Origin: Candidatus Leptovillus affinis
GTDB lineage: Bacteria > Chloroflexota > Anaerolineae > Promineifilales > Promineifilaceae
Direction: 5' to 3'
Assembly (NCBI GenBank): GCA_016705235.1
Contig: JADIYP010000005.1
Location: 190,067-254,066 of the forward strand
Length of the DNA: 64,000 bases
Part shown: in pieces, positions 2,141-26,103 of the stretch
Layout of the letters: every line of letters begins with the position of its first letter
How positions within the stretch are numbered: the stretch's first letter is position 1
Position numbers and translations under genes: made by a program
Notes under the pieces: generated by a model
What the model saw: the letters and a program-made list of their open reading frames with translations, nothing else
What the model was told of the DNA's origin: nothing
Database searches by the model: none

Positions 2141-2251
2141 TATCTCAACTTCTTCATAATACGGTCAGCCGCACTTATGCCGAATACTTCTATCAAAACC
2201 ACGGGTATTGTCAGGATACCACTCGCCGTAGGCGAGCGTCGATATGGCCTG

Positions 2252-5422: not shown

Positions 5423-5437
5423 GGGAATATCTCGCTT

Positions 5438-5453
5438 CTGAAAACGATTTCAG
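5438..5453. promoter_or_regulatory. LacI/CcpA-type operator-like palindrome CTGAAAACGATTTCAG, 16 nt upstream of the GH81 start
   Basis: Near-perfect TGAAA-N-CG-N-TTTCA palindrome read directly in the sequence. A second copy lies at 5589..5602. Confidence 0.45.
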
Positions 5454-5588
5454 AAAAATTGAAGAATAGTGGAGAAAATTTCAGTTAATGATACGGCAAT
5501 CAGGCATTCTGTCAACGAAATCGACAAAATGATACCGAAATGGCGATATTTGTTTCATTTTTTAGATTATTTTAGGGGTTTTTAGTGT

Positions 5589-5602
5589 TGAAATCGATTT
5601 CA
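5589..5602. promoter_or_regulatory. LacI/CcpA-type operator-like perfect palindrome TGAAATCGATTTCA
   Basis: Perfect 14-bp palindrome in the AT-rich GH32-GH81 intergenic region. Confidence 0.45.
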
Positions 5603-7362: not shown

Positions 7363-7674
7363 GGTCTGTATAGTTCCTTCAATCCGGTTCTTTAGGATTT
7401 CGTGGGGTATCGCCCAATGTAGGGGCGGGTCTTGTACCCGCCCAGACGAGGGCGACCACAAGGATCACCCCTATATCGGGTGTCAACCCCCTGAATTCCC
7501 AAAGAACCGTCAATCCTTAATTTGCAATCCATCGGACAATTCGCTTACCCATAGTACTAATAGGCTATATTCTCCTTCTCGTTACGCCCTGACACAGGCC
7601 TCATTTCTACGTCTCCTTCACGAAGTCAATCTCCTAAGTGGATACAATGAACCTGTGAGTTGCCATAAACGTGG

Positions 7675-10908: not shown

Positions 10909-10956
10909 AGCGCATGGCGGACCACAATCGTCTTGCCGACTTTTGGGGTCTGTGTA

Positions 10957-12033
10957 ATGACAATGAACGAGCAACCGGTAATTTTGATTGTAGATGATGA
11001 TTTTACGGCGCGGCAGACGGCGGAAATGCTGCTGCTGCAAGAGGGGTATGCGCTGCATTTTGCGGCCAGCGGGCCAGAGGCGCTGCAACGCCTGCCGGAA
11101 ATAAACCCCGACGTGATTTTGTTGGATGTGATGATGCCAGGCATGGATGGGTTTGTGGTGTGCCGGGCATTGAAAACGGCCGTTGCCACCCAACACATTC
11201 CTGTTGTCCTGGTGACGGCGCTGGACAGCAAAGAAGATGTGGCGCGCGGCCTGGACGCCGGAGCCGACGACTTTATCCACAAGCCCGTGAACGGACTGGA
11301 ACTGCGTGCCCGCGTGCGGTCTATGCTGCGCATTAAGCAGCGCCACGATGAACTGCAAACGATGATGCGCCTGCGTCAGGATTTGTCGGACATGATCATC
11401 CACGATATTCGCAGCCCGCTGACGACCATTACGATGTACTGCGATTTATTGCAGCGTTATACGCCCCAACCCGAGGCGCAAGAGGCGCTGCACACCATCA
11501 CCGGCCAGGTGGTCCGGCTGAATGCGTACCTGACGGACATGCTGATGATGGCCAAGATGGAGCATGGCAAGCTGGTGCTGCTGCAAACGGCCGTTACCCT
11601 GAACGATCTGCTGCAAACGGCCTGCGACGCCTATCAGCCGCTGGCGGCGCAAAGGTCGGTGACGCTGGCTCTGGAAATGCCGTCGGAGCCACTGACCGCC
11701 AGCCTGGACGCAAATTTATGGCAGCGTGTGCTGGATAATTTGTTGTCTAATGCGCTGAAATTTTCGCCGGTAAACGGCCGTGTCACAGTGCAGTTACGGC
11801 CGTTACCCAACGCCCAATTTTGTGTGCAAGTCTGCGACGAAGGACCAGGCATTCTGCCGGAACACCGCGAGACAATTTTCGATAAATTCCAGATTGTGGC
11901 CGCCGGACAGCGCGAAGTGAAGCAGGTTGGGTTAGGGCTGGCTTTTTGTCGTCTGGTGGTAGAGGCGCATAACGGCCGTATCGCCGTCCACGCCAACGAC
12001 CCCCACGGCGCAATCTTCACAGTGGAAGCGTAG
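10957..12033 (+). CDS. Receiver-histidine kinase fusion (REC-HisKA-HATPase_c)
   Basis: REC segment ILIVDDD...DVILLDVMMPGMDG...HKPV, then H-box HDIRSPLTTI and ATPase boxes LLSNALKFSP and GLGLAF. I prefer the ATG at 10957 to the alternative start at 10933 used in the track. Confidence 0.85.
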   Translation: MTMNEQPVILIVDDDFTARQTAEMLLLQEGYALHFAASGPEALQRLPEINPDVILLDVMMPGMDGFVVCRALKTAVATQHIPVVLVTALDSKEDVARGLDAGADDFIHKPVNGLELRARVRSMLRIKQRHDELQTMMRLRQDLSDMIIHDIRSPLTTITMYCDLLQRYTPQPEAQEALHTITGQVVRLNAYLTDMLMMAKMEHGKLVLLQTAVTLNDLLQTACDAYQPLAAQRSVTLALEMPSEPLTASLDANLWQRVLDNLLSNALKFSPVNGRVTVQLRPLPNAQFCVQVCDEGPGILPEHRETIFDKFQIVAAGQREVKQVGLGLAFCRLVVEAHNGRIAVHANDPHGAIFTVEA

Positions 12034-12134
12034 AGCGAGAGGGTAGAGCGAGAGCGAGAGGAAAAAATAAGCATTCTTTTTCTACGCTCCGCACTCCCCA
12101 CTTCGCACTCCCCACTTTTTAGGAGGGCTTATAG

Positions 12135-12854
12135 ATGGCTCCAAACATATTATTGGTTGACGATGACACCGAATTGGTTCGCAGCTTGCGGTTGGTGCTG
12201 ACGCAAGATGGGTATGAAGTTCTGACGGCGCACAATGGGCTGGAAGGGCTGCAAACCGCCCACCAGATGCAGCCTGATCTGATTGTGCTGGATGTGAACA
12301 TGCCGTGGATGGACGGCCTGGAAGTTTGCCGCCGCCTGCGCCTGGACACCGACTCGGCGCTGCGCTTTGTACCCATCCTCTTTCTGACATCGCAAGACAG
12401 CGTGGATGACCATGTAACCGGCCTGGACGCCGGGGCCGATGATTATCTGGACAAGCCCTTTCAATCGAAAGAGTTAAAAGCGCGGGTGCGCGCGCTGCTG
12501 CGGCGGCGTGAAGCTGCCACAGCGCTGCCGGCTGCCGATACGCCAGAATTGACGGTGGGACCGTTGACGCTGCATTTGCAGGCGTGTTGGGTGCGCCGGG
12601 GCAGCGGCGAGGCGGTGCAGCTTACCCCGGCCGAGTTTGAGCTGTTGTACCACCTGATGACGCACCCGAAACGGCCGTTTTCCAGTGAGAACCTGTTGGA
12701 AGAAGTATGGGCCTACGCGCCTGGCACGGCCGATCCCAGTCTGGTGCGCTGGCACATCAAAAATCTACGCCTCAAGATAGAGCCAAACGCCAGCCAGCCG
12801 TCACTCATTCGCACGGTGTCTCGCCGGGGCTATATGTTGGTCCCGGAAGGATAA
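12135..12854 (+). CDS. OmpR/PhoB-family response regulator (REC + winged-helix DNA-binding domain)
   Basis: REC segment ILLVDDD...DLIVLDVNMPWMDG...DKPF. Winged-helix segment LTPAEFELLYHLM...VRWHIKNLRLKIE...IRTVSRRGY. Confidence 0.9.
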   Translation: MAPNILLVDDDTELVRSLRLVLTQDGYEVLTAHNGLEGLQTAHQMQPDLIVLDVNMPWMDGLEVCRRLRLDTDSALRFVPILFLTSQDSVDDHVTGLDAGADDYLDKPFQSKELKARVRALLRRREAATALPAADTPELTVGPLTLHLQACWVRRGSGEAVQLTPAEFELLYHLMTHPKRPFSSENLLEEVWAYAPGTADPSLVRWHIKNLRLKIEPNASQPSLIRTVSRRGYMLVPEG

Positions 12855-12880
12855 AGACCTATCAGATTTCGTAAGTCGGC

Positions 12881-12913
12881 CCTCACGCAAGCCTCACGCA
12901 AGCCTCGCGCCTG
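12881..12913 (+). promoter_or_regulatory. Three tandem 11-bp direct repeats (CCTCACGCAAG CCTCACGCAAG CCTCGCGCCTG) between the OmpR-type regulator and the archaellin gene; candidate response-regulator binding site
   Basis: Read directly in the sequence. The 11-bp period equals one helical turn, as is usual for OmpR/PhoB boxes. A second direct repeat, GCAGCGCA, occurs at 12970 and 12990. Confidence 0.3.
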
Positions 12914-13041
12914 GCCCACGCTCCGCAAGATAAGTCTGTTGTACAGTAAGTACATCGAACAAAAACGGTGCAGCGCAAAAATCGAATAAGCAGCGCACCG
13001 AGAAAAAAATCAACATTCATATCTTGCATAAGGAGCAAAAA

Positions 13042-13629
13042 ATGAACAGCAACAATTTTTGGAAGAAGTTGGGTCGGGATGAAAGCGGTATCACCGCTCT
13101 GGAAACAGCCATCATCTTGATCGCCTTTATCGTGGTAGCTTCGGTTTTTGCCTTTACCATCCTGTCAGCCGGTACATTCTCCACAGAACGTGGTAAAGAA
13201 GCCGTCTACTCCGGTTTAGGCGAGGTGCAGTCCTCAATGGAAGTCAAAGGCTCCCTCATCGCCACGGCCGCCGTTAGCGGCACCACCGCTGCAGAAATGG
13301 ACACGTTGGTCTTTACGGTCGGCAACGTTGTTGGCGGTGAACCGCTGGACCTGAATACAACGACTCCGGTGATGGTGGTCAATTACGTAGACTCGGCGCA
13401 GTTCGAGAATGACTTGCCCTGGAGCACGAACTGGATTGTGTCCCACGACGGTGACGAACTGTTGGATAAAGGCGAACTGGTAGAAATTACTCTGGACCTG
13501 AGCAGCCTGACCACTCCTCTGGGCATCAATACGCAGTTCTCGGTAGAAATGAAACCGCCCAAAGGCGCGGCGCTGAGCATCCAACGCACCACCCCGCCCT
13601 ACTTCGACCAGGTGATGGACCTGAAATAA
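13042..13629 (+). CDS. arlB: Archaellin (archaeal-type flagellin, class III signal peptide)
   Basis: N-terminus MNSNNFWKKLGRDESG/ITALETAIILIAFIVVASVFAFTILSAG. It closely resembles crenarchaeal archaellin N-termini of the form ...KGLAGLDTAIILIAFIITASVLAY. AAGGAG lies 6 nt before the ATG at 13042; the track begins at an upstream TTG at 13024. Confidence 0.8.
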   Translation: MNSNNFWKKLGRDESGITALETAIILIAFIVVASVFAFTILSAGTFSTERGKEAVYSGLGEVQSSMEVKGSLIATAAVSGTTAAEMDTLVFTVGNVVGGEPLDLNTTTPVMVVNYVDSAQFENDLPWSTNWIVSHDGDELLDKGELVEITLDLSSLTTPLGINTQFSVEMKPPKGAALSIQRTTPPYFDQVMDLK

Positions 13630-13713
13630 CAAATCACAAGTTGCCACATGAATGAACAGTTCAGCCGGGCTTATGAGTCCGGCTAAACTGTTGTCAGCAA
13701 TAGGAGCAGTCTG

Positions 13714-14268
13714 ATGGACATCGAACAAAGAGTGAAATCTCTGGAACAAGAAATGAAGATTTTGAAGAATCAGGTTCAAAAAACGTTATTGGACATTCAA
13801 GAACAAATTCTCGTTCATTACCATCCGGCGCTCCGTACAGAAGATGAATCGTACGACGAAATCAGTGCCCCGGCGCGGGGCGCGACCAGACCGGCGTACA
13901 GCAATGGGCAGCCGGCGGCGGATTTCGAGCCGAACCAGCCCACAGGGTTGAAGGTACGTCAGGTTTCTTTGGCCGATTTGCGCGAGACGACACGGCCGTT
14001 ACCCGAAAAACTCCCCGCCGCCGCCACGCCTCCCGCCGCCGCCGACCAGTCTTTTGCCGGTCTGGTAGATTGGGTTGGGGGCAGCGTAGCCAAGATTGGC
14101 GCCGAGCGAACCCGTAAGCTGCTGGACCTGCGCGCATCTTCCGGCGCGGTTCCCCCAGACGTATACGATACGTTGCAGCAGTTGATTGTGTTATGTGACG
14201 AGAATGAAGGGGCAGATGCGGCGGAAACGGCCGTTCTGCTGCAACAACTCGCCCAACTACTGAACTAA
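13714..14268 (+). CDS. Hypothetical coiled-coil protein in the archaellum cluster (possibly ArlC/D/E-like; speculative)
   Basis: N-terminal coiled coil MDIEQRVKSLEQEMKILKNQVQKTLLDIQEQIL, a Pro/Ala-rich linker and a C-terminal globular part. The functional suggestion rests on position only. Confidence 0.4.
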   Translation: MDIEQRVKSLEQEMKILKNQVQKTLLDIQEQILVHYHPALRTEDESYDEISAPARGATRPAYSNGQPAADFEPNQPTGLKVRQVSLADLRETTRPLPEKLPAAATPPAAADQSFAGLVDWVGGSVAKIGAERTRKLLDLRASSGAVPPDVYDTLQQLIVLCDENEGADAAETAVLLQQLAQLLN

Positions 14269-14331
14269 CCACCGACAGATTGGTCCCATTTATTCGCCGG
14301 GTCTAATCGCTACAAGTACCAGAGGCATCAC

Positions 14332-14841
14332 ATGGACAAAGCAATCATGACCACAATGCTCATCGTCATCAGTATGGTGATGGGAGTTCTCCTGTTTAAC
14401 GCCGCCTATCCGGCCATCATCGAAAGCAACGACGCCATGACCAGCATGACCAGCCGCGCCGACGAAAAGCTAAAAAGCCAGATCACCATCGTCCATTCCG
14501 TGGGCGAGCTAGACAGCAGCAGTTGGTGGCAAGACACCAACGGCGACGGCGATTTCGACGTATTTGCCTGGGTTAAGAATGTGGGCGAAACGCGCATTGT
14601 GGCTTTGGAACAAACCGATGTGTTTTTTGGTCCTGAAGGCGCATTTAACCGCATTCCGCATCAAAGCGTCGCCAGCGGTTACCCCTATTGGACCTGGCAG
14701 GTGGAAAACGGCGGCCAATGGACGCCAACGGCCACCTTAAAAATTACCATTCATTATGGCGTGCCTTTGGGAAGCGGCCGTTACTTCCTCAAGGTCATCA
14801 CTCCCAACGGCGTAGACGCCGAATACTTCTTCAGCATGTAA
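14332..14841 (+). CDS. ArlF/ArlG-like archaellum protein (single N-terminal TM helix plus beta-rich domain)
   Basis: N-terminus MDKAIMTTMLIVISMVMGVLLFNAAYP. Its size and its position right after the archaellin fit FlaF/FlaG-type proteins. Confidence 0.5.
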   Translation: MDKAIMTTMLIVISMVMGVLLFNAAYPAIIESNDAMTSMTSRADEKLKSQITIVHSVGELDSSSWWQDTNGDGDFDVFAWVKNVGETRIVALEQTDVFFGPEGAFNRIPHQSVASGYPYWTWQVENGGQWTPTATLKITIHYGVPLGSGRYFLKVITPNGVDAEYFFSM

Positions 14842-14868
14842 ATCTGTTGAAAAAGTGGGATAGCTTTT

Positions 14869-15396
14869 ATGGAAACCATACTGACTGCTTTTATTGTCCT
14901 GGCTCTCATCTTGTTTGCCAGCCTCACCATTTTCACCGGCTACCTGAACGCGCAAGACACGCTGCGCGCCTCCTGGCAAGAGATGCAGACCCGCCTGAGC
15001 GACCAGATGCACACCGACCTCACGCCCATCTTGGCGCAAACCAAAAGTTCTGGCGCGGTCATCGAGCTAACACTGCGCAACGACGGCGACACCCGCCTGG
15101 CCGATTTCGCCGATTGGGATGTCATCGTCGAATACTACACCCCGCCTGGCGACCTTGCGGTGGGCTGGTACAGCTACAACGTCGGCGAACCGGCCGCCGG
15201 TGAGTGGAGCGTGATTGGCATTTATATAGACGCGGCCACGGCCGAGGGCGAAGTGTTTGAACCCGGGATTCTGAATCCGGGCGAGGAAGTTTTGCTGCGT
15301 CTGCGCGCCTTGCCCCCGGTCGGACCAAGCACCACCAATATGTTGACCATTGCCGCCGAGAATGGCGTGAGCGCCAGTATGCAGTTTGTGCGTTGA
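14869..15396 (+). CDS. ArlF/ArlG-like archaellum protein (second paralogue)
   Basis: N-terminus METILTAFIVLALILFASLTIFTGYL, about 175 aa, with the same architecture as 14332..14841. Confidence 0.5.
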   Translation: METILTAFIVLALILFASLTIFTGYLNAQDTLRASWQEMQTRLSDQMHTDLTPILAQTKSSGAVIELTLRNDGDTRLADFADWDVIVEYYTPPGDLAVGWYSYNVGEPAAGEWSVIGIYIDAATAEGEVFEPGILNPGEEVLLRLRALPPVGPSTTNMLTIAAENGVSASMQFVR

Positions 15397-15495
15397 TTGC
15401 CAGGCGCCTGGTTCAGGCGCAAGGCAACCTTTTTTTAGACATCGTAACCGATGCCATTTATTAGCAGTTCTGGCAAGTTTAACCGAGGGAAAAGC

Positions 15496-15903
15496 ATGAT
15501 TCAATTATCACCACCAGCCCGCAAGTCGGACCCGATTGATCTGGCCTATGCCCGCGACATCGTAGATGGCGACCTGGAATTGTTGCAAGAGATCGTGACG
15601 CTCTTTTTGTTCGATTGTTCGTACCAGGTGGCGGCGCTGCAAGAAGCTGTAGCCTCAGGCAGTGGAAACGCTGTAACAGCCAAAGCCCACCGCCTGAAGT
15701 GCAGCCTGGGTAACATCGGCGGTTGGCAGGCGTATCAATTGGTCTGCGAGATGGAACTCATGGGCTTGAGGAATGATCTGAGCGGGGCAGATGAGTGTTT
15801 GTTCCACCTGACAGCCGCGATGGAAGACATTGTGGCTTTCTTTGCGCAGCCGAACTGGGCGGAACAGGCAGAAGATGGGGCGACGTTCGACGAGGCACAA
15901 TGA
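15496..15903 (+). CDS. HPt (histidine phosphotransfer) domain protein
   Basis: AKAHRLKCSLGNIG fits the HPt H-x-x-K-G/S motif within a four-helix-sized protein. The ATG at 15496 follows GAGGGA. The stop overlaps the next start (ATGA at 15900). Confidence 0.65.
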   Translation: MIQLSPPARKSDPIDLAYARDIVDGDLELLQEIVTLFLFDCSYQVAALQEAVASGSGNAVTAKAHRLKCSLGNIGGWQAYQLVCEMELMGLRNDLSGADECLFHLTAAMEDIVAFFAQPNWAEQAEDGATFDEAQ

Positions 15904-16325
15904 ACCATTCGCATCGCATCCTGGCAATAGATGATGATCCGCTGACGCTGCACATTGTAGAGCATGTGCTGCAAAAGCATGGGTATGAGGTATTTACGGC
16001 TGGTAACGGCCACGATGGCCTGGAATTGGCCCGTGTTCTAAAACCCGACCTGGTGATTTTGGACATTATGATGCCGGGGTTGGATGGCTTTCAGGTGTGC
16101 CGCAAGCTGCGCGAAAACCCGGAAACGGCCGTTATCACCGTCCTCATGCTCACAGCCCGTGGCGCCATAGACAAACCGGTCAGCGACCCGGTGGATTTTG
16201 CCCAGCGGGTGCGCGACCAGCTTAACGGCTACCACGTGGGCGCATCCGATTTTCTGACCAAGCCGGTTAAAGCGGCCGTTCTGGTGGAAAGAGTGCGCTC
16301 GTTAATCTGGAGCGGTAGGAATTAA
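15900..16325 (+). CDS. CheY-like single-domain response regulator
   Basis: RILAIDDDPLTL...DLVILDIMMPGLDG...TKPV. Confidence 0.85.
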   Translation: MNHSHRILAIDDDPLTLHIVEHVLQKHGYEVFTAGNGHDGLELARVLKPDLVILDIMMPGLDGFQVCRKLRENPETAVITVLMLTARGAIDKPVSDPVDFAQRVRDQLNGYHVGASDFLTKPVKAAVLVERVRSLIWSGRN

Positions 16326-16326
16326 A

Positions 16327-17385
16327 ATGGCACAGAAGATTTTGGTCATTGAAGATGATGTGCAGATGTTGGCATGGACCCAAGGCCTCCTGGAAGACGA
16401 AGGCTACGATGTGCTGGTGGCTATTGACGATGGGGCAGGATTAAAAACGGCCGTGTCCGAAAAACCCGATCTCATCCTGCTAGACATTTTTTTGCCCGGC
16501 ATGGACGGCGAAGAAGTCGCCCGCTATTTACGCGCCGACCCCGAAACGGCCGAAATCCCCCTCATCATGCTCGCCAACGACAGCCAGCTAGACAGCCTCA
16601 CCATCGGCCACGAATCTCCCGTAGACGATTACCTCATCAAGCCCTTCGATGCCGTTACACTGGTCACTAAAATCCTGCCCTACCTGGGTCGCAAAGGACC
16701 GCAAAAAAGCGTCATTTCCTCCGGCAACGGCGAATTAGACAGCAAAATGGGCGGCGGCATTCCCTTAGGCTCTCTCACCCTTGTCGAAGGCAGTTCTGGG
16801 GCCGGCAAATCCGTCCTTTCGCAGCAAATGATATTTGGCTCCCTAAACGACAGCTTCACCCTATCGCTGTTTACCAGCGAAAACAGCGTCAGAAGCCTGG
16901 TGAAACAAATGCGCAGCCTGGACCTGGATATTCTGGACTATTTGCTCCTGGGCAAAATCCGTGTTTACCCGATGGAACTATCCCGTTTAGGCAACACAGC
17001 CCCCCGACTGCTGCTTCAGGCCATGAGCCAGGAAACCAGCCGCGACATGATCATCGTCGATTCGTTGACGCTGGCTATTGGCCAATCCACCCTCGAAGAA
17101 GTATTGGGGTTTTTTGAGGAATGCAAGCGGCTTTGCGCGCGCGGCAGCAGCATCATCCTCATCTTACATTCCCACGCGCTCAACAGTGAATTGTTGGTGC
17201 GCATCCGCTCATTGTGCGACGCGCATTTGCAGCTTCGCACCGAAGAAGTAGGCAAAAAACTGGTTAAAACGTTGGAAGTAACCAAAGTTCGTGGCGCGGA
17301 CAAAACCACCGGCAATATCGTCAGCTTTGAAGTGGAACCCGGATGGGGTATGCGCGTCATCCCGGTAAGCAAAGTGAAGGGATAG
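16327..17385 (+). CDS. arlH: Receiver domain fused to ArlH/FlaH (KaiC/RecA-like archaellum ATPase)
   Basis: Residues 1 to about 125 form a REC domain: KILVIEDD...DLILLDIFLPGMDG...IKPF. The C-terminal part is ISSGNGELDSKMGGGIPLGSLTLVEGSSGAGKSVLSQQMIFGS...FTSENSVRSLVKQMRSLDLDI, matching the FlaH consensus and including a Walker A motif. Confidence 0.8.
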   Translation: MAQKILVIEDDVQMLAWTQGLLEDEGYDVLVAIDDGAGLKTAVSEKPDLILLDIFLPGMDGEEVARYLRADPETAEIPLIMLANDSQLDSLTIGHESPVDDYLIKPFDAVTLVTKILPYLGRKGPQKSVISSGNGELDSKMGGGIPLGSLTLVEGSSGAGKSVLSQQMIFGSLNDSFTLSLFTSENSVRSLVKQMRSLDLDILDYLLLGKIRVYPMELSRLGNTAPRLLLQAMSQETSRDMIIVDSLTLAIGQSTLEEVLGFFEECKRLCARGSSIILILHSHALNSELLVRIRSLCDAHLQLRTEEVGKKLVKTLEVTKVRGADKTTGNIVSFEVEPGWGMRVIPVSKVKG

Positions 17386-17481
17386 TCACGTAGTCTAGTA
17401 GTCAAGTAGTCTGGTAGCCATGACTACTCGACTAGACAACTACTCGACTAAACGACTACTCGGCTAAGCGGCTAAAAAATT

Positions 17482-19239
17482 ATGTCTCAATCAGTCCTTC
17501 CTTTCCCATTTCAAACAGGTGGCGCGCAGTGCAACCACGGTGTGGGATGCAGCCTGCAAATGGTGCTGCCGCCGCCGCTGCGCGACGCTTGCGAACGGGC
17601 AGATTTCCTGGCGGATTATTTGCACCAGGTTCCGTTGGGCGACATCGGGATTCCCGTGTATTACCCCACGCTTTCACGCAAGCTGCAACTGTTGGAACGA
17701 CGCAACCTCATTTATCCTATTGACGGCGGTTTGTTTGTCCACATTTACCCCGACGCTGTCGCGGCCCGCGACCATTATGTCTCCATAGAACCAACTGTAA
17801 TGGTGAATCTGGATGAGGTGATGCTGAAGATTGACGAGCGTCTGGTGGAATGGGCCGAAGACATTGGGGAGGTAGTAGACGAAGAAGAAAAGAAGCAGAT
17901 GCTGCTAAAGTTACTTGACCAAATTTGCACAACGGAACTGCCACAGGCTAATGGCAGTGGGAACGGGAACGGGAACGGCCGTACCCCATCCGCCAAAGCC
18001 GCCGCCAGAAAAAGCAAAACCGACCCCATTTACGTTACCGCGCAGCAACTGGAAGGCGTGCGTTACCGCGTCCTGCGCGACAAAGTTGGGCTTGGGCCAC
18101 TACAGCCGCTGCTGCTGGACCCCTACATAGAAGACATCAGTTGCAGCGGCGTCGGGGCCATCTTCGTTGAACACAAAATCTTCAAAAGCCTGCAAACCAC
18201 CATCAACTTCGAGACCCTGGACCAACTCGACGATTTCGCCGTCTGGCTGGGCGAATGGATCAAAAGCCCGGTGACTGTGCGCAACCCCATCGTGGATGCC
18301 GTGTTGCCGGATGGGTCACGTATTAACATTGTGTACGGCCGTGAGATCTCCAAACGCGGCAGCAACTTCACCATCCGCAAGTTCGGCGGTTCCACCACCA
18401 GCATCATGGAACTTATCGAATACGGCACGCTGGATTACACCATGGCCGCCTACCTTTCGCTCATCATGGAGGAGGGGATGAACGTCTTTGTTGTCGGGGC
18501 CACAGCCTCCGGCAAAACGACGACGTTGAACGCCATCAACACCTTCATTTTGCCGGAAGCCAAAATCATCACCATCGAAGACACCCCTGAAGTGATGGTT
18601 CCCCACAAAAACTGGATTCGGGAAGTCACCCGCGATATGGGGCGCGAGTCCGCAGGGGGCAGCGTGGGCATGTTCGATCTACTCAGAGCGGCGCTGCGGC
18701 AGCGGCCGGATCGCATCATCATCGGTGAAATTCGTGGCGAAGAAGGACGCATCGCCTTTCAGGCCATGCAAACCGGTCATGGCGTCATGTCTACCTTTCA
18801 CGCCGCCTCAGTGGAAAAACTGATCCAACGTCTCACCGGCGACCCCATCAACGTGCCCAAAACTTATATAGACAACCTCAACGTCGCCGTGGTGCAATCG
18901 GCCGTGCGCCTGGCCGACAAAAAAATGGCCCGCCGCATCCTTAGCATCAATGAAATCATCGGCTATGACCCTTATACAGAAAGTTTCTCCTTTCTGGAAA
19001 CTTTTCGCTGGAATCCGGCCAATGACACATTCGAGTTTCCCGGCTATATGAACAGCTTCTTGCTGGAAGAGCGCATTGCTATGCGGCGCGGCATTCCGCC
19101 CCAAAAGCGCAAAATGATTTATACCGAATTGAAACGCCGGGCAACCGTTTTTCAACGGCTGCATAAAGAAAAAGGAGTGCGTGGTTTTGATGACTTCTTC
19201 CAAATCCTTGCCGAAGCCCATCGCCAAAAGCTCTTATAA
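17482..19239 (+). CDS. arlI: ArlI/FlaI-type secretion-superfamily ATPase (archaellum motor/assembly ATPase)
   Basis: Walker A GATASGKTTTLNAI, Walker B DRIIIGEIRG, a His box TGHGVMSTFHA and an N-terminal FlaI-like region NLIYPIDGGLFVHIY...YVSIEP. Confidence 0.85.
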   Translation: MSQSVLPFPFQTGGAQCNHGVGCSLQMVLPPPLRDACERADFLADYLHQVPLGDIGIPVYYPTLSRKLQLLERRNLIYPIDGGLFVHIYPDAVAARDHYVSIEPTVMVNLDEVMLKIDERLVEWAEDIGEVVDEEEKKQMLLKLLDQICTTELPQANGSGNGNGNGRTPSAKAAARKSKTDPIYVTAQQLEGVRYRVLRDKVGLGPLQPLLLDPYIEDISCSGVGAIFVEHKIFKSLQTTINFETLDQLDDFAVWLGEWIKSPVTVRNPIVDAVLPDGSRINIVYGREISKRGSNFTIRKFGGSTTSIMELIEYGTLDYTMAAYLSLIMEEGMNVFVVGATASGKTTTLNAINTFILPEAKIITIEDTPEVMVPHKNWIREVTRDMGRESAGGSVGMFDLLRAALRQRPDRIIIGEIRGEEGRIAFQAMQTGHGVMSTFHAASVEKLIQRLTGDPINVPKTYIDNLNVAVVQSAVRLADKKMARRILSINEIIGYDPYTESFSFLETFRWNPANDTFEFPGYMNSFLLEERIAMRRGIPPQKRKMIYTELKRRATVFQRLHKEKGVRGFDDFFQILAEAHRQKLL

Positions 19240-20680
19240 ATTTAAGAACATCACGGCTTTTGACCAGTTTTACCAGTTGACCTACATGTCGGCTACGGCC
19301 GCTGCCGGCATCTCGCGCAGCAAAACGTTTGAAATGGCGGCGGAATCCGGTTCGCCGGCGGCCAATTATTTTATCGCCATCAATTTGCTGGTGAATGAAC
19401 TCCGTTTCGACTACCCGGAAGCGTGCCGCACGGTGGCCGATAAAGCGCCCTCGGACGAGATCAAAAGTTTCCTGCTGCGCCTGTCCGACGCGATGCGGTC
19501 TGGCGAGCCGTTGCCCGCTTTTCTGGCCCGCGAAGCGGCGGTGCAGGCGAATGTGTACGATAACGCCTACGAACGCGATCTGGAATCGCTGAAAAAATGG
19601 TCGGATGCGTTTTCTTCGATTGTGGTTTCGGTGGCCCTGATTGTGATCATTAATTTGGTATCGACGATGATTTATTCGATGGGCACGGGCATGATTACCG
19701 GGTTGGTGATAACGGCCGTGATCATGGGTTTCTTTGGCGCCTGGATTCTCTCCCGCGCTGCTCCACAAGAAGAGATGACCATTCCCTCGGCCATAGGGTC
19801 AGACGGCCAGCGGCGTACCCTGCAATTAAGCCGTATTATCATCCCCACGGCCGTTCTCCTCGGCGGTGTTTTGGCATTTCTCGGGTTTAGCCAGGTATGG
19901 GTACTGGTAGCCGTATCGGCCGTGCTGCTGCCTCTGGGCATCGTCAGCTCGCGGGCCGACGCGGAAATCACCAAAAAAGACGCCGAAATCAGTTCGTTTT
20001 TACGCTCGGTAGGCGGCATGGCTACTTCCACCGGCACCACCCTCAAAGAAGCCATCACCAAAATAGACATCAGCTCCTTTCCCCGGCTTCAACCCGATGT
20101 AAAGCGGTTGGATACGCGCCTGCGTGCCCTGGTCAGCCCAACGGTTTGCTGGCAGCGCTTTGGCAACGAGACCGGCAGCCGCCTGATTCGGCAGGCTGTC
20201 GGCATTTTTTACGAAGCGGTACGCCTGGGCGGCGATCCGGAACAAGTGGGATTTCTTTGCTCAATGTTTGCGTCGCGCACCGCGATGCTGCGCGCAAAAA
20301 GGCGCACGGTAGTCAGCACGTTTACCTGGCTAACGCTGGTTATGCATATCGTCGTCGCCGCGCTGATGGTATTTGTACTGCACATCATTCACAACTTCTT
20401 GCTCCTGATGCAATCGGCCATGACGGCGGATCAGGCGGCGTTGGCCTCGGAAAATCTGGCGATGCCGCTGGCTAATTTTAGCCCGCAGCAGATGCAGTTT
20501 CTGGACGCCATTACCATCATGATGGTGGTCTTGCTGGCGGTTATCAGCGCGATGGCCATCGTCGCCAGTGATGGCGGGTATAAATTTAAGCTCACGCTTT
20601 ACCTGGCGGTGCTGCTTTTTATGTCGGGCATTAGCTTCTGGATTGTGCCGCCTATGGTAGCGCAGTTGTTGACAATTTGA
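19181..20680 (+). CDS. arlJ: ArlJ/FlaJ-type polytopic membrane platform protein (T2SSF/TadC-like)
   Basis: About 500 aa with two T2SSF-like repeats and multiple TM helices, immediately after arlI. The start is ambiguous (GTG 19181 or ATG 19190). Confidence 0.75.
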   Translation: MVLMTSSKSLPKPIAKSSYKFKNITAFDQFYQLTYMSATAAAGISRSKTFEMAAESGSPAANYFIAINLLVNELRFDYPEACRTVADKAPSDEIKSFLLRLSDAMRSGEPLPAFLAREAAVQANVYDNAYERDLESLKKWSDAFSSIVVSVALIVIINLVSTMIYSMGTGMITGLVITAVIMGFFGAWILSRAAPQEEMTIPSAIGSDGQRRTLQLSRIIIPTAVLLGGVLAFLGFSQVWVLVAVSAVLLPLGIVSSRADAEITKKDAEISSFLRSVGGMATSTGTTLKEAITKIDISSFPRLQPDVKRLDTRLRALVSPTVCWQRFGNETGSRLIRQAVGIFYEAVRLGGDPEQVGFLCSMFASRTAMLRAKRRTVVSTFTWLTLVMHIVVAALMVFVLHIIHNFLLLMQSAMTADQAALASENLAMPLANFSPQQMQFLDAITIMMVVLLAVISAMAIVASDGGYKFKLTLYLAVLLFMSGISFWIVPPMVAQLLTI

Positions 20681-20760
20681 TCCTATTTAACAGATTTACA
20701 CCGATTTTCTGATGATTGAGGGTAACGATAAAGACCCCAAGGGTTTGCTTCCTTGAAAAT

Positions 20761-20793
20761 AGATTTGTCAAATCTTTAAGATTTGACAAATCT
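20761..20793. repeat. Double palindrome AGATTTGTCAAATCT-TTA-AGATTTGACAAATCT
   Basis: Read directly in the sequence. It belongs to a family with members at 26200, 37734 and 56461. Confidence 0.7.
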
Positions 20794-20836
20794 CAACCTT
20801 TTCATTCGTGGTGGTGGGTTAGACCACTCATGATGT

Positions 20837-21040
20837 CTCCTGGGAATATAAACCCTTGGGGTTTTGCCGGAGAAACCTGAACAGACCCCAAGGGTTTGCT
20901 CCTGGGAATTTGGAATATTTGGACACCAAACCCCTGGGGTTTTGCCGGAGAAACCTGAACAGACCCCAAGGGTTTGCTCCTGGGAATTTGGAATATTTGG
21001 ACACCAAACCCTTGGGGTCTTGCCGGAGAAACCTGAACAG
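20837..21040 (+). repeat. About 2.5 copies of a 78-bp tandem repeat, each unit carrying the inverted pair AAACCCTTGGGGT / ACCCCAAGGGTTT
   Basis: Units start at 20850, 20928 and 21006. A further ACCCCAAGGGTTTGCT lies at about 20736. The ORFs predicted here (20802..21176, 20856..21050, 20864..21223) are repeat artefacts. Confidence 0.85.
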
Positions 21041-21063
21041 TTACGATTAAGGAATGACGTATT

Positions 21064-22098
21064 ATGTCTAAATCCACACGGCCGTTTCGCCTTCTTCTTC
21101 CCCTGGTTTTTATCGGTGGGCTGCTGTTCGGCTGGCTGGTCATCGGCTGGTGGTTGTGGCCTATCCAGTGGGCCAACGTGGCCCCGGCGCAGCTATCGTC
21201 AGACCATCAGCGGATTTACGTAGCCATGGCCGCCGAAGCCTATGCCCTGACGGGTGACGTAGCCCAGGCGCAGTCGCGGTTGGCAACCTGGGACAACGCG
21301 ACACTGGCTGCCACCCTGACTTTGCTGATTCAGGAAACGACCGATCCTGTGGTCCGTGAGCGTTACATTGCATTGGGAGAAGCGCTGGCCATGCCGCAGG
21401 TAGACTTGAGTCTGATGGACGTGATTTTAGGGCAGAAAGCGATTCTGGTAACGGCCGTCGCCGCCGTTGGCCTCTTCTTGGCCGCTTTGGGGATGGCCTT
21501 GTTTCCTGTTTTGCAGCAGACCAGAGCGCGCCAACAGGAAGAGCTGCTTCTGTTGAACGGCGCCGAAGCGGGAACAGACATGGATGGAGATGAGCAAACG
21601 GCCGTTTCTTCCAGCAGCGCTGCCCGGCAAAACAACGGCGGAACCGAGACGGCCGCAAACGCTGGCCAGGGCAGCGCCCCTGACTCGGCGGCCAACACTA
21701 CCTCGCAAACAAACGCTGGCGACCAGGCAACCGCCGGTGGCGGCGGGACCGGACAGCCCGGCGCGGCCCAGGCCGCAGGCGGGAAACAGGCGCAGCAAAA
21801 CCCGGCCAACGCCGCCGCGCAGCCACCCGAACAGCAGGCAACGGCCGTGCAGAATCCGGCCAACGCCCCCGCGCCAGCCGCCAATCAGCCGCCGCCCGAA
21901 GAAACGGCCGAAAAACTACTCGCCGAAGCAACCGGCGATATTCAAGCCCTGCTCAACAGCATCTTCGACGAAGACGACAAGCTTGCCCATTACGATACAC
22001 TGCTGCACAACATGGGCGACGTTGATATGGTTCGATTGGCAGACCGCAGCGCCCAAATGCTGCGTCAACTGCGGCAAAAGAACCGGGAGACAGCCTGA
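21064..22098 (+). CDS. Hypothetical membrane protein with a long Ala/Gln/Pro/Asn-rich disordered region
   Basis: Two predicted TM helices (LLLPLVFIGGLLFGWLVIGWWLW and ILVTAVAAVGLFLAALGMALF), a low-complexity middle and a short conserved-looking C-terminus. No family recognised. Confidence 0.5.
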   Translation: MSKSTRPFRLLLPLVFIGGLLFGWLVIGWWLWPIQWANVAPAQLSSDHQRIYVAMAAEAYALTGDVAQAQSRLATWDNATLAATLTLLIQETTDPVVRERYIALGEALAMPQVDLSLMDVILGQKAILVTAVAAVGLFLAALGMALFPVLQQTRARQQEELLLLNGAEAGTDMDGDEQTAVSSSSAARQNNGGTETAANAGQGSAPDSAANTTSQTNAGDQATAGGGGTGQPGAAQAAGGKQAQQNPANAAAQPPEQQATAVQNPANAPAPAANQPPPEETAEKLLAEATGDIQALLNSIFDEDDKLAHYDTLLHNMGDVDMVRLADRSAQMLRQLRQKNRETA

Positions 22099-22099
22099 C

Positions 22100-22711
22100 A
22101 TGGACCTGCTATGGTTGATTTTGGGGTTTTTGTTGGGCTGGTTGTTGAACTGGCTGAGCGACTTTTTACCGTGCCGCCTGGCTAAAACGCCGCGCCCGGC
22201 CAATCTACGGGGACGCGCTGCTGGCTTGCCCTGGATGATAGGGGCGATGACGGCCGTGGCCTGTTATTACTTTGGCTTGCGCGGGCAATGGGTCTCTCTA
22301 GTCTTGTACGCATTTTTCTTGTTGATTGCCCTGATCGACGGCAAACACAGGTTGGTCCTGAACGTGCTGGTGTACCCGGCTATCGCCCTGACGCTGGTTT
22401 ATCATCTGGTCGCCGGGGGGCAGTCCTGGACGGCCGTATGGTTGGGCGGAGGCTTGGCCCTGGCTGCTTTTGTCCTGGCTGCCTGGCTGCGCCCCGGCGA
22501 TTTGGGCGGCGGCGACGTGAAACTGGCGGCGCTGATTGGCCTGATCTTCGGTTTCCCTGGTGTGTTGTGGCCGCTGCTGCTGGGTGTAGGGCTGGGTGGA
22601 TTGGCCGCCGCCTATTTGCTGCTGCGTGGATACGGCCGTCGCTATCACATCCCCTATGCTCCCTTTTTGTCCCTTGGCGTCTTTATCGCTCTTCTTTACA
22701 CCCCTCTCTAA
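22100..22711 (+). CDS. Peptidase A24 family prepilin/preflagellin peptidase
   Basis: MDLLWLILGFLLGWLLNWLSD..., a first Asp box LIALIDGKHRLV and a second Asp box GGGDVKLAALIGLIFG. The ATG at 22100 follows the upstream stop directly. The 5' part of track ORF 21584..22711 is an out-of-frame overlap with the upstream gene. Confidence 0.85.
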   Translation: MDLLWLILGFLLGWLLNWLSDFLPCRLAKTPRPANLRGRAAGLPWMIGAMTAVACYYFGLRGQWVSLVLYAFFLLIALIDGKHRLVLNVLVYPAIALTLVYHLVAGGQSWTAVWLGGGLALAAFVLAAWLRPGDLGGGDVKLAALIGLIFGFPGVLWPLLLGVGLGGLAAAYLLLRGYGRRYHIPYAPFLSLGVFIALLYTPL

Positions 22712-22816
22712 CGTGCAACAAACTCGCGTATCTTATCGCTTCCTACCCATAATATTCACGTTTATTTTCCGCTTTACGCGCTGATCTATTCATATAATGG
22801 TTAAACTTCCGCTAAT

Positions 22817-23021
22817 GAAGACAAACGTCTGGTTAGTCTTTAAGAAAACAATCAGGTAATGAACAGGTCATTCTGAGCGCAGTCTTCGGAGCAAAGAATC
22901 TCACTAACTCGGTCATTCCAAACAAATGGGATGCTTCGGCAGCCTCAGCACAGGCTCTCAGCATGACATATCTCTCGATTACCAGATTGATTTTTTAATC
23001 CACAAGCAGACGTTTGTCTTC
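22817..23021. repeat. About 205-bp foldback element bounded by a perfect 15-bp inverted repeat (GAAGACAAACGTCTG ... CAGACGTTTGTCTTC)
   Basis: Read directly in the sequence. The interior carries inverted GTCATTCTGAG / CTCAGCATGAC motifs. It lies in a noncoding gap of about 450 bp. Confidence 0.6.
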
Positions 23022-23160
23022 CGGGTCATTATGATTTGCGGTTGAATCCCTGGGAGCAGTAGGTGTTGCCAATCGTTGCAAAACGGCCTCCAGGCGAGCG
23101 TAGTTTGTGCGTGTTGTTTGCCAAAAGGCAAGACATAACAACTCAAGTGAAGTAACCATT

Positions 23161-23979
23161 ATGCGCGAATCTTCTTATGATTTAGACACCGTTCTGAGGG
23201 AACAAACGGCCACAAATTCCCGGCGTCCCATCATTTTGTGGTTAGTCGCCTTGGGATTACTGCTGCTGTTTGTGCCCTTGTACCTGGTAGCCACGGCCGT
23301 GCGCGCCGACACCCAACGTCTGGAGAGCGAATTAAGCCAGTTGCAAATGGCGGAGATGGGCGATCCGGGGGGCGATCCTACGATAAACGCCTTGCAAACC
23401 AGAGTAGCCGAAGCACAAACTGAGGCGGATAGTCTGGCCGCCATCCAGTCGAGCACAGGCGCGCAGCATGTGAATTGGCCGGCCGTAGTGGATGCCATCA
23501 AGACCGACGCCAATCAGATCACGTTGTTGGGCGTAGAACAGGCGGATAATCGCCTGACTATTTCAGGTGAAGCGGCTGATGATACGGCCGTTATCGCCTA
23601 TGCCCAGGAACTGGAAGCGTCCGGGCAGTTTGCGCGGATTGTGGTGCAGTCAATTACGCTGCTGCCTACACCGCAACCGGTCATTACGCCGACGTTGTCG
23701 CCCTCGCCTATTGCAACAACTGCGCCCTCACCAACCACGGTCGCAGCCACAGCAACAAGCGCCGGCCCGGTGACAAACCCAACGGCCGTGCCCACCATCA
23801 CCCCCACGCCCAATTTGCGCGACGCTTACGAGGTTGACGACAGCCAGGCTAAACCCATATTTGTCGGCGAAGTGCAGACCCGCAACTTCTACCCCCAGGG
23901 CGATGTGGACAACGCCTGGTTTTTGGCTAAGAACGGCCGTTTCTACACCATTGCCACCACCAACCTTTCCCCGGCGTAG
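23161..23979 (+). CDS. PilN-like membrane protein, 5' portion of a gene apparently interrupted by a -1 frameshift
   Basis: TM helix ILWLVALGLLLLFVPLYLVA, a coiled coil, and a PilN-like core ITLLGVEQADNRLTISGEAADDTAVIAYAQELEASGQFARIVVQSI. A Pro/Thr linker follows, then the start of a beta-domain whose paralogue (24240..24420) continues in the frame of the next ORF. Confidence 0.6.
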   Translation: MRESSYDLDTVLREQTATNSRRPIILWLVALGLLLLFVPLYLVATAVRADTQRLESELSQLQMAEMGDPGGDPTINALQTRVAEAQTEADSLAAIQSSTGAQHVNWPAVVDAIKTDANQITLLGVEQADNRLTISGEAADDTAVIAYAQELEASGQFARIVVQSITLLPTPQPVITPTLSPSPIATTAPSPTTVAATATSAGPVTNPTAVPTITPTPNLRDAYEVDDSQAKPIFVGEVQTRNFYPQGDVDNAWFLAKNGRFYTIATTNLSPA

Positions 23980-23984
23980 ACACC

Positions 23985-25073
23985 GTGCTCACTGTTATCA
24001 TCAATGGCCAGGAATACGTCAACGATGACCGGCAAGATGGAACCCTGGCCTCAGAAATTGGCGTCCAAAGCCTTGCCGGAGACGTGCAAGTCTTTATCCA
24101 GGTGACCAATCGCGGGCAGTTTGGGCCACAGATGGGCTATCAGCTTTTTGTGCAGGAAATGGTTCCTACGCCTGGTCCTACAGCTACCCAAACGCTGCCG
24201 CCGCCCACCGCCCAGCCAGACCCCACCAGCACCCCAGACTTGCGCGATGCGTTTGAACCCGATGAAACCACTCCGACCGTTATCCTGGTAGGCGAGACGC
24301 AAACGCGCAATTTCTTCCCTCAGGGAGACCAGGACAACGCCAGTTTTATCACCAAGGGCGGGCGTTTTTACCAGGTTGCCACGTCGAACCTGGCGCTGGG
24401 CGTAGATACGTTTCTACGCGTGACGCTAGATGGCGCTCAATGGGAAAACGACGATTATGCCCCGGCGGGCACAGGCAACTTTGCCTCGTCGGTTTGTTTT
24501 CCGGCGGCGTCGGTAGACGGCACGGCCGTTGCCAACATCACCAACAAAATGCAGCAGTTCAGCCCCAGCGCTGCCTACAACATCGCCGTTTTGGAAGTGC
24601 CGGCCCTAAGCCTGAATCTGGACCAACTGGCTTTTGGTCCGGCCGCCGCCGGCGGGGCCAACCCGCCCAACCAATCTGTGCAAATCTTTGGCGACAGTAC
24701 GTTGAGCTGGTCGGCCGTTACCAGCGCGCCCTGGCTGCAAATCAGCCCCAATCAGGGCGGCGCGCCCAGCCTGATGGATGTAACGGCGAACATTACCGGG
24801 CTACCGCAAGGCACATATGAAGGAACCATCACCTTTTCCTGGGCTTCCTTATGCCGCCGCGAAGTGAAAGTGACGTTGCAGGTTGATCCTCCGGCGGTTA
24901 GTAACAATCAGACCGGACAGGAAAATGGGCTGGTTTTGGCGATGGGGCGAGTGGGAGAAACGGCCGTTTCCCGTCGCCTCATCCTGGCGAAGCAAATCGC
25001 CCAACCCCTAACCAGCGCTGTCCCGCTGAACACCGTCGCTTTTGTCATCATTGTCGAATTGCAGGGGCAGTAA
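23985..25073 (+). CDS. 3' portion of the same PilN-like gene: two pre-peptidase-C-terminal-like domains and a BACON-like domain
   Basis: Frame B reads ...PGVDTVLTVIINGQEYVNDD directly across the frame-A stop, paralleling ALGVDTFLRVTLDGAQWENDD further on. The C-terminal LSWSAVTSAPWLQISPNQGGAPSLMDVTANITGLPQGTYEGTITF is BACON-like. Confidence 0.55.
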   Translation: MLTVIINGQEYVNDDRQDGTLASEIGVQSLAGDVQVFIQVTNRGQFGPQMGYQLFVQEMVPTPGPTATQTLPPPTAQPDPTSTPDLRDAFEPDETTPTVILVGETQTRNFFPQGDQDNASFITKGGRFYQVATSNLALGVDTFLRVTLDGAQWENDDYAPAGTGNFASSVCFPAASVDGTAVANITNKMQQFSPSAAYNIAVLEVPALSLNLDQLAFGPAAAGGANPPNQSVQIFGDSTLSWSAVTSAPWLQISPNQGGAPSLMDVTANITGLPQGTYEGTITFSWASLCRREVKVTLQVDPPAVSNNQTGQENGLVLAMGRVGETAVSRRLILAKQIAQPLTSAVPLNTVAFVIIVELQGQ

Positions 25074-25095
25074 CCAGGCAGCGAGTACAAAACCT

Positions 25096-26103
25096 ATGGA
25101 CGTTTTATACGATATACGCGACACGATCCGCCGCAACATGTTATCTGTTTTGGCAATTGCTTTTATCGCCATTACCGTGGTGTGGTTTGGCTATTTCCTC
25201 TCCACCAATGTCTTGCCCCGTTGGGCGGCCCGGCAGGAATTGGCCGCGCAAGTATTAGCCATGCAGCAAACCACCCACCAGGGCGAACAGGCGCAACAAG
25301 ATTCGACCGCCGCGCTGCAAGCACAACTGGCCGATTCCCAGACAAAACTCAACGCAACAACCGGCGCCTTCCTTAGCGAAGCTCAGGCGGCTGCCATTTT
25401 GGACAGCCTTTACCGTTACGCGGCCAGCAGCAGCGTCACCATTACCGGTTTGCAGGCCCAATCTGCGGCCGAGCCGGTTGCCCCCGATGCTTTGTACAGC
25501 GTTCAGTCGTTCGCTGTGCAAATGACCGGGCCTGTGCTGCAATTGTTGGATTTTCTCGGCCGTTTTCAGGAGACCACCTGGCCTGGCGTATCCTTGAAAG
25601 ATGTTAAGCTTGCTCAGGGGGAAGGACAATCCACGCTGGACATGAGTCTGGCTCTTTATACGTCGCCTCTTGCCACCGGCGCAGCCCTTGAAGCAGCGCC
25701 GTTTATGGAAATATCACCCAGCGGCGCAAATGCAACGGCCGTTACTGGCGCATCGGCGGCCATCAGTACCGTGCCAGCCGCTGACCTGACAGCGCTGGTT
25801 AACAGCCTCTACGAACCCTGGATGGCTGAAAACTGGCCTGAAGCGATCCGCATTTTAGAGCAGATTTTGCTCCAAACGCCTGACGATTTTGATATGCAAA
25901 CACGGCTGTATGCGGCTTATCTTTACCAGGCTTACCAGCTTTACGCCGCCCAGCAGCCAGAAGAAGCCATAGCCGCCCTCAAGCGCGCCCTTGAGCTTCG
26001 CCCGGACGGCCAGGAAGCCATCACCGCTTTGCAACGGTTGAATAATGGGCTGCCACTAGACGAATCTGGTTCTTTAGGAACTCAGGGGGTTGACAGCCCC
26101 TGA
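25096..26103 (+). CDS. PilO-like membrane protein with C-terminal TPR repeats
   Basis: TM helix LSVLAIAFIAITVVWFGYFL, a coiled coil, a PilO-like core FAVQMTGPVLQLLDFLGRFQETTWPGVSLKDVKL and a TPR-like tail WPEAIRILEQIL...EEAIAALKRALELRPD. Confidence 0.5.
   Translation: MDVLYDIRDTIRRNMLSVLAIAFIAITVVWFGYFLSTNVLPRWAARQELAAQVLAMQQTTHQGEQAQQDSTAALQAQLADSQTKLNATTGAFLSEAQAAAILDSLYRYAASSSVTITGLQAQSAAEPVAPDALYSVQSFAVQMTGPVLQLLDFLGRFQETTWPGVSLKDVKLAQGEGQSTLDMSLALYTSPLATGAALEAAPFMEISPSGANATAVTGASAAISTVPAADLTALVNSLYEPWMAENWPEAIRILEQILLQTPDDFDMQTRLYAAYLYQAYQLYAAQQPEEAIAALKRALELRPDGQEAITALQRLNNGLPLDESGSLGTQGVDSP

Follow-up and report, generated by a model that had tools for sequence, protein, structure and literature searches.

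A PilN-like and a PilO-like gene close the archaellum operon of Candidatus Leptovillus affinis: a probable wall scaffold with a one-base break in its pilN-like gene

The archaellum operon of Candidatus Leptovillus affinis, a wastewater bacterium of the Chloroflexota, is closed by genes for two membrane proteins, one PilN-like and one PilO-like. Both lie in the window analysed here, a stretch of 64,000 nucleotides (nt) of contig JADIYP010000005.1 in assembly GCA_016705235.1 (G000, contig C5; 5.7 Mb in 7 contigs). It is probable that a single PilN-family gene and its PilO-like partner form a conserved pair at the 3' end of the archaellum operon of Chloroflexota and serve as a wall scaffold, and that the break present in the pilN-like gene is the loss of one C private to this assembly. 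How an archaeal rotary motor is fitted into an envelope that bears peptidoglycan has been an open question since the discovery of bacterial archaella in 2025. The comparative evidence points to a PilN/PilO-type pair as a regular member of the archaellum operon in one class of Chloroflexota, with wall-facing modules (PPC-like, BACON-like, TPR, LysM) that differ between lineages. The starting point was an earlier note made from the letters of the window, which had described the two proteins and a -1 frameshift in the first of them. Coordinates of all the features are collected in Table 1.

As judged from the reading frames of its relatives, the region 23161-25073 is one gene, for a bitopic membrane protein of the PilN family of 637 amino acids (aa). 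In the window it is read in two frames. The product of frame A has 272 residues and ends in ...FYTIATTNLSPA (...TTNLSPA), and frame B continues as ...GVDTVLTVIINGQEYVNDD (...PGVDTVLTVIINGQEYVNDD) through the frame-A stop and onward to 25073; translation gives both as the earlier note had them, and the joined frames yield a read-through product of 637 aa. The switch had been placed in a C-run at 23966-23974, that is, within TTTCCCCGG, and the run itself occupies 23969-23972. The window has four Cs at this point (C4), where every relative has five pyrimidines, C5 or, in one congener, TCCCC. The congener codons at the site are AAC CTT TC(C/T) CCC GGC GTA GAC (N L S P G V D), and the six conspecific contigs covering it all have C5. 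The frame is broken by one C missing from a C5 run, a loss private to this assembly. Four genomes of the same genus carry an uninterrupted orthologue over residues 1-637, at 87-95% identity. The protein cluster at 90% identity holds many intact conspecific members of 637 aa together with the two halves from the window, deposited as separate proteins, and the wider family, in more than 160 clusters, consists throughout of single proteins of about 500-1100 aa. Since every orthologue is a single open reading frame (ORF) of 636-641 aa, the proposal of one gene of about 640 codons stands; the opposite pattern, two separate genes with the same stop, was found in none of the congeners and conspecifics. 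The domain that is split is the first copy of a repeat and is paralogous to the next copy (...SNLALGVDTFLRVTLDGAQWENDD; ...FYQVATSNLALGVDTFLRVTLDGAQWENDD). The repeat had been recognised correctly from the sequence, but the distance downstream to the paralogous GVDT motif, at 24390, is about 417 nt and not about 270 nt.

The Pfam PilN profile (PF05137) matches residues 119-168 of the protein with 26-28.7 bits, against a cut-off of 22.8. The match covers only positions 13-62 of the 78 in the profile, and it recurs in all 43 aligned family members (best E 1.2e-10). The structure was modelled on the near-identical intact protein P0003 by AlphaFold2 via ColabFold, with an alignment of 43 sequences (mean pLDDT 76). 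In the model a transmembrane (TM) helix runs into a coiled coil at residues 22-99, with a continuous helix at 22-65 and a further one at 73-99, and is followed by an alpha-beta-beta-alpha-beta core at 106-167. Next come three domains with pLDDT above 90, namely two beta-sandwiches, at about 217-334 and 358-480, and one Ig-like domain, at 483-576, and the chain finishes, after a disordered stretch, with a strand at residues 626-634. In this final strand F628 is invariant and V626, V629, I630 and L634 are conserved in at least 90% of the 43 sequences. The short cytoplasmic N-terminus, single TM helix and coiled coil give the protein the bitopic topology of PilN; the TM helix, coiled coil and PilN-like core that had been read at 23161-23979 are upheld by the Pfam score above cut-off and by the model. 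The N-terminus itself, MRESSYDLDTVL, varies across orthologues and lacks the conserved motif that binds PilM. No pilM adjoins the gene, and elsewhere in the genome there are just two partial PilM_2 matches, one of which is probably FtsA-like.

The names that the earlier note gave to the extracytoplasmic domains hold in part. The PPC hidden Markov model (HMM; PF04151) gave no match at E <= 1 in the intact orthologue and matches one of the 43 family members (E 0.0095); the PPC domain thus lacks sequence-HMM support in this protein, whereas its fold finds a likeness, since Foldseek pairs the sandwiches with the tandem collagen-binding (PPC-fold) domains of ColG (5iku, E 1.4e-8; for the pair, searched jointly, TMt 0.37 and rmsd 14.7). 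The BACON-type domain stays below threshold in this protein, at 20-21 bits for BACON_2 against a cut-off of 25, but BACON_2 matches 25 of the 43 family members at E <= 0.01 (best 1.2e-7; PF13004 / PF19190), and the Ig domain superimposes on the BACON-bearing 3zmr with an rmsd of 2.4 over 97 columns. Conserved acidic NDD and D-x-D motifs in the beta domains are presumably reminiscent of Ca-binding sites.

The PilO-like gene starts within 23 nt of the end of the PilN-like gene. Its model (mean pLDDT 71) shows a TM helix, a coiled coil, two alpha-beta-beta motifs (helix 95-111 with strands 115-122 and 135-145; helix 147-159 with strands 165-174 and 179-189) and a TPR domain. The top Foldseek matches in the PDB are all PilO, of M. 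xanthus and P. aeruginosa: 3jc8_O, 2rjz and 5uvr (TMt 0.65, rmsd 3.3). Model, fold matches and a TPR_14 match of 30 bits agree with the TM helix, coiled coil, PilO-like core and TPR repeats noticed earlier at 25096-26103. The PilO likeness came from the fold search; the PilO-family profile, run against PDB sequences, retrieved TPR proteins only. The HMM searches that had been suggested give a divided answer, with PilN above its cut-off and PilO (PF04350) at 15.9 bits in this protein, under the cut-off of 22, though a homologue of 44% identity that carries the name PilO at NCBI, P0147, passes with 31.6 bits. LysM was not found in the PilO-like protein here or in four congeners; it is present in G030, G010, L058 and P0147, and homologues outside the genus add either LysM or a second TPR block and LysM. 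The PilO-like gene follows the PilN-like gene in every other sufficiently long locus where tblastn detected a PilO-like protein; in G097 and G314 none was detected with the window protein as query. The part of the protein with the TM helix and the coiled coil (25096-25380) gives sub-threshold Pfam matches to ArlX, an archaellum scaffold protein of Crenarchaeota (E 0.036 here, E 0.016 in P0147), which probably reflect coiled-coil composition.

Upstream of the pair lie the arl genes, supported by Pfam, so that the adjacency to the archaellum stands as first described. The order of the operon is arlB ... arlH-arlI-arlJ-(pilD)-pilN-pilO, and the archaellum gene order of 13024-20680 recurs in seven other genomes. 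Within the genus the unit of synteny is 7517-26054, from a hybrid sensor kinase through the end of the PilO-like gene (congeners G001, G004 and G005), and its flanks differ from genome to genome, with CRISPR-Cas here and two-component genes or others elsewhere. Because synteny stops at 26054, the last 16 or so residues of the PilO-like protein are unlike those of the congeners. The PilN and PilO matches at this locus are the only ones in the genome. Its T2SSE ATPases are three only, ArlI and two Tad-like proteins, and no ATPase of the PilB/PilT type was found among its T2SSE profile matches.

The link to the archaellum was followed through a class sample of 301 genomes, 16 of them with archaellin, in which related genomes are not independent, so that the figures count genomes without amounting to a test. 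Matches to the PilN family that extend over the N-terminal PilN part occur in 14 of the 16 archaellin-positive genomes (8 families) and in 11 of the 285 others, which bears out the co-occurrence that the earlier note had proposed to look for. In G097, G109, G212, G174, G314 and G107, which represent six other families, arlJ is followed at a distance of 1-3.4 kb by a PilN-like gene, whose product has only 33-42% identity to the window protein. A first survey of five archaellin-less genomes had suggested no link to the archaellum, and this was overturned by the class sample together with the synteny. From these sequence comparisons, the PilN/PilO pair appears strongly, not exclusively, tied to the archaellum.

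It might be argued that the pair is a general envelope scaffold, or one associated with Tad pili, whose place behind arlJ is operon hitch-hiking. Several observations weigh in this direction and against a dedicated archaellum part. Sixteen genomes (11 of the class sample and 5 of a survey of related loci) have the pair but neither archaellin nor an ArlI orthologue; in them it stands among unrelated genes, and their ATPases are of the Tad type only, plus two weaker matches in longer ORFs in G044. A tree built from the first 420 residues, moreover, intermixes archaellum-less copies with archaellum-linked ones. The module thus does not depend strictly on the archaellum, and the adaptor idea of the earlier note, which gains from the conserved operon position and the co-occurrence, loses something to these genomes. 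Hitch-hiking of a general scaffold is nevertheless improbable, in view of its presence in 14 of the 16 archaellated genomes against 11 of the 285 others, of a position downstream of arlJ that is kept in at least six families at such modest protein identity, and of the genus block that ends with the PilO-like gene while its flanks change. In G107 (contig C45, L071, at about 2100-5600), a prepilin peptidase gene (pilD) lies between pilN and pilO and ties the three into one unit, which also speaks against it. As a separate observation, genomes of family f45 (G079, G122, G161, G222, G272, G295 and G317), mostly without archaellin, show an expansion of the PilN/beta-sandwich family, each with 3-6 matches, the longest ORFs reaching about 2200 aa.

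The cause of the frame break is a different matter, for which the earlier note had listed a pseudogene, a homopolymer error and a programmed shift. A programmed -1 ribosomal frameshift, or transcriptional slippage on the C-run, would yield the full-length protein beside a short form with a function of its own, and it finds some appeal in a shift that sits in a short homopolymer two codons ahead of the stop and in a downstream frame that is entirely open and conserved. Transcriptional slippage, like phase variation, needs a run longer than C4. Recoding was rejected because the relatives do not share the shift, the protein being encoded in one frame, with the extra base, in all ten copies compared (4 congeners and 6 conspecific contigs), because the zero-frame codons AAC CTT TCC CCG GCG TAG contain no X XXY YYZ heptamer, and because no structure follows, the 90 nt downstream folding at -22 kcal/mol with z = -0.19 against shuffles. 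Its probability is negligible. An error or a strain-private pseudogene thus remain, with the error favoured.

That the one-base loss is a residual homopolymer error of a long-read-type assembly is likely. With only 7 contigs for 5.7 Mb, this metagenome-derived genome almost certainly goes back to long reads, to judge from its contiguity. When 26 conspecific contigs were aligned onto the window and private indels were scored over the 36.6 kb where at least three of them gave coverage, the pilN site was the sole clean indel private to the window, and the indels common to several assemblies were all intergenic or in-frame. With alignment ends and the extreme gene terminus set aside, the other private one-base frameshifts were in the highly contiguous JADJ-series metagenome-assembled genomes (MAGs) of the species. 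They affect a malT-like gene, cas4, where C5 has become C4, and, at a T4 run, the pilN-like gene itself, whose product is then 568 aa long (P0131). GCA_016707865.1 has, in addition, fragmented copies of arlH, cas4 and cas3. About 190 kb of other conspecific contigs, mostly assembled with MEGAHIT or SPAdes, had no private one-base frameshifts away from alignment ends.

A real loss, by which the pilN-like gene would have been inactivated recently in this strain or population, is rather unlikely. It would leave a membrane stub of 272 aa and, at best, an unexported C-terminal fragment, with the anchoring of the archaellum impaired or dispensable in this lineage; if the C4 allele were real, this strain would be a natural knock-out. 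Several points count for such a lesion and against an error. The assembly is clean in general and locally, the pilN site being the sole gap in 5.2 kb against the conspecific short-read contig L062, as it is the sole private indel of the 36.6 kb. Against the congener G001 there is no genome-wide excess of frame breaks, frame splits and homopolymer indels being symmetric over about 300 kb aligned, a comparison that is too noisy at 91% identity. Private indels occur in short-read conspecific contigs at a similar overall rate, and in other lineages the module has been lost or kept independently of the archaellum. Error and lesion were, besides, weighed from assemblies and not from reads, and the platforms of this genome and of the JADJ MAGs were inferred from contiguity and accession series. 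On the opposite side, the remainder of the gene is undamaged and about 99% identical to intact conspecific copies, all other arl genes of the window are intact, comparable private frameshifts in conserved genes are met elsewhere only in the highly contiguous JADJ MAGs, and genuine shared indels avoid coding frames. Hence an assembly error is preferred; in long-read MAGs of this species, the reads need to be consulted before a frame broken by a single base is taken for a pseudogene or for recoding.

Other broken copies were seen in the species. Many one-base deletions split arlH, cas4, cas3 and the malT-like gene in L061, L076 and L085 (all of GCA_016707865.1), L077 and L078, and the same pilN-like gene is split at the T4 run in GCA_016703445.1; pseudogene calls in these conspecific JADJ-series assemblies are unreliable. 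A multiply frameshifted fragment of the pilN-like gene, P0129, is a member of the protein cluster and is filed at NCBI under Candidatus Amarobacter glycogenicus (Tepidiformia). Mis-binning is possible in this case, because the Tepidiformia label does not fit the named relatives of the window, which are labelled Ardenticatenales or Anaerolineae.

By analogy with type IVa pili, the PilN-like and PilO-like proteins would pair through their coiled coils and ferredoxin-like cores, and the pair could form a membrane-anchored cage round the ArlJ/ArlI platform. The extracytoplasmic modules would extend into the wall layers, those of PilN as two collagen-binding/PPC-like sandwiches and a BACON-like Ig domain, and those of PilO as TPR repeats, to which LysM is added elsewhere. 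In this way the motor might be fixed in the bacterial envelope, or the filament guided through it. A PilN/PilO wall adaptor for the bacterial archaellum is, on this analogy, plausible.

The locus is a further case of a published PilN/PilO-archaellum module; its domains are described here in more detail, and co-occurrence within the class is higher. In Litorilinea aerophila, pilN and a pilO with LysM were found to adjoin the archaellum genes (Sivabalasarma et al., Nat Microbiol 2025, PMC12488501), and in 2026 the same group proposed PilN/PilO as an alternative alignment scaffold through the wall and counted pilO and pilN in 34 of 235 archaellated Chloroflexota that encode peptidoglycan (Front Microbiol, PMC13319060). 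The statement in the earlier note that PilN and PilO are not known as archaellum parts is made outdated by these two papers. In L. aerophila as here, genes for bitopic PilN and PilO proteins lie beside a horizontally acquired archaellum cluster, in a member of the Chloroflexota without a type IVa pilus, and in both the scaffold role through the wall is a proposal. Unlike that case, the PilO-like protein of the window has TPR and no LysM, more distant relatives having both, and the pilN-like gene is interrupted in this assembly. Neither of the two papers mentions PPC, BACON or TPR modules in its main text; the PilN-like protein described here differs from their accounts in its two PPC/collagen-binding-like sandwiches, its BACON-like domain and its conserved C-terminal strand.

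Several other known systems share features with the pair. With PilN and PilO of type IVa pili (PilO 2rjz/5uvr; 3jc8; PF05137, PF04350) it has in common a single TM helix, a coiled coil and a ferredoxin-like periplasmic core, as well as adjacent pilN and pilO genes, a PilN Pfam score above cut-off and PilO as best PDB fold match. In contrast to them there is no adjacent pilM, no conserved PilM-binding N-terminus and no PilB/PilT in the genome, the extracytoplasmic domain arrays are large, and the genomic partner is the archaellum and not a pilus. The archaeal ArlF/ArlG stator and ArlX scaffold resemble the pair in proposed function only, as membrane anchors that would tie a rotary motor to the outer wall layer; homology is absent save for the sub-threshold ArlX matches (E 0.016-0.036), and ArlF/G-like genes are also present in this operon. 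The three extracytoplasmic beta domains may share the fold of the ColG collagen-binding/PPC domains (5iku) and of the BACON domain of a Bacteroides glycoside hydrolase (3zmr), but sequence HMMs scarcely detect them, and they are attached to a PilN core and not to an enzyme.

The arrangement of the PilN-like protein allows a more tentative idea. Its PilN core is one strand short of that of the PilO paralogue, and the conserved C-terminal strand comes after the domain array. In the predicted structure, the beta-sandwich/Ig array seems to interrupt the last hairpin of the PilN core, ahead of the final strand, in which case both halves of the gene are needed. A split-core PilN of this kind, with a C-terminal strand that completes the ferredoxin-like fold, would form with the PilO-TPR(-LysM) protein a near-obligatory wall adaptor encoded in the archaellum operon in this class of Chloroflexota (14 of 16 genomes), a bacterial invention that enabled cross-domain transfer. 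This extended proposal is doubtful, the insertion model being based on predicted secondary structure. Two sequence comparisons spoke neither for nor against the insertion: Pfam scoring of a chimera of core and C-terminus and of a scrambled control gave a gain of about 1 bit in both, and hhalign, run on the PilO core and the PilN core, the latter once including the strand and once lacking it, gave a probability of 1-2%.

Table 1. Coordinates in the window of the genes, domains and other features of the archaellum operon and its 3' end
Feature	Position	Strand	Basis or remark
arlB	13024-13629	+	Pfam Arch_flagellin
Two unnamed conserved genes	13714-14268, 14332-14841	+	Archaellum context
arlF/G-like gene	14869-15396	+	Pfam FlaF_Ig-like
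Hpt/CheY	15451-16325	+	Archaellum context
REC-ArlH	16327-17385	+	Pfam KaiC-type ATPase
arlI	17482-19239	+	Pfam T2SSE
arlJ	19181-20680	+	Pfam T2SSF
Prepilin/preflagellin peptidase (A24), short form, 203 aa	22100-22711	+	Pfam Peptidase_A24, 43 bits
PilN-like gene, 5' part, frame A, 272 codons and premature TAG	23161-23979	+	Translation
Cytoplasmic N-terminus, then TM helix of PilN-like protein	23230-23301	+	Hydrophobic stretch, residues 24-47
Coiled coil	to ~23457	+	P0003 model
PilN core	~23476-23664	+	Pfam, P0003 model
Pro/Thr linker	23668-23799	+	P0003 model
Beta-sandwich 1	~23809 to ~24161, split by frameshift	+	P0003 model
Frameshift site, C4 run	23969-23972	+	Alignment with 4 congeners and 6 conspecific contigs
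PilN-like gene, 3' part, frame B, 366 codons and stop	23973-25073	+	Translation
Beta-sandwich 2	~24231-24599	+	P0003 model
BACON-like Ig domain	~24606-24887	+	P0003 model, fold match 3zmr
Disordered stretch, then conserved C-terminal strand	~25035-25061	+	P0003 model, 43-sequence conservation
PilO-like gene, 335 aa	25096-26103	+	TM helix, coiled coil, PilO-type core, TPR
TM helix of PilO-like protein	25138-25200	+	Model
PilO-type core, then linker	~25378-25662	+	Model
TPR repeats	~25786-26040	+	TPR_14, 30 bits
Inverted repeat (perfect) just after PilO-like stop codon	26101-26159	.	Sequence; likely operon end

The inverted repeat behind the PilO-like gene is perfect over 24 bp and is made from the word GCGTGAT; from its sequence and position it is likely to be a terminator at the end of the operon and of the island. 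Between arlJ and the pair, an ORF of 375 aa starting at 21584 and named 'PilD' is an over-extension, conspecific contigs calling at this point the shorter peptidase of Table 1, which is without the N-terminal methyltransferase-type domain. The interval between arlJ and the peptidase gene holds a conserved ORF of 344 aa (21064-22098) without a Pfam match, a membrane protein with two hydrophobic helices, a long middle part of low complexity rich in Q, A, N and P, and a charged C-terminus. Repeats within 20.7-21.9 kb vary in copy number among conspecific contigs.

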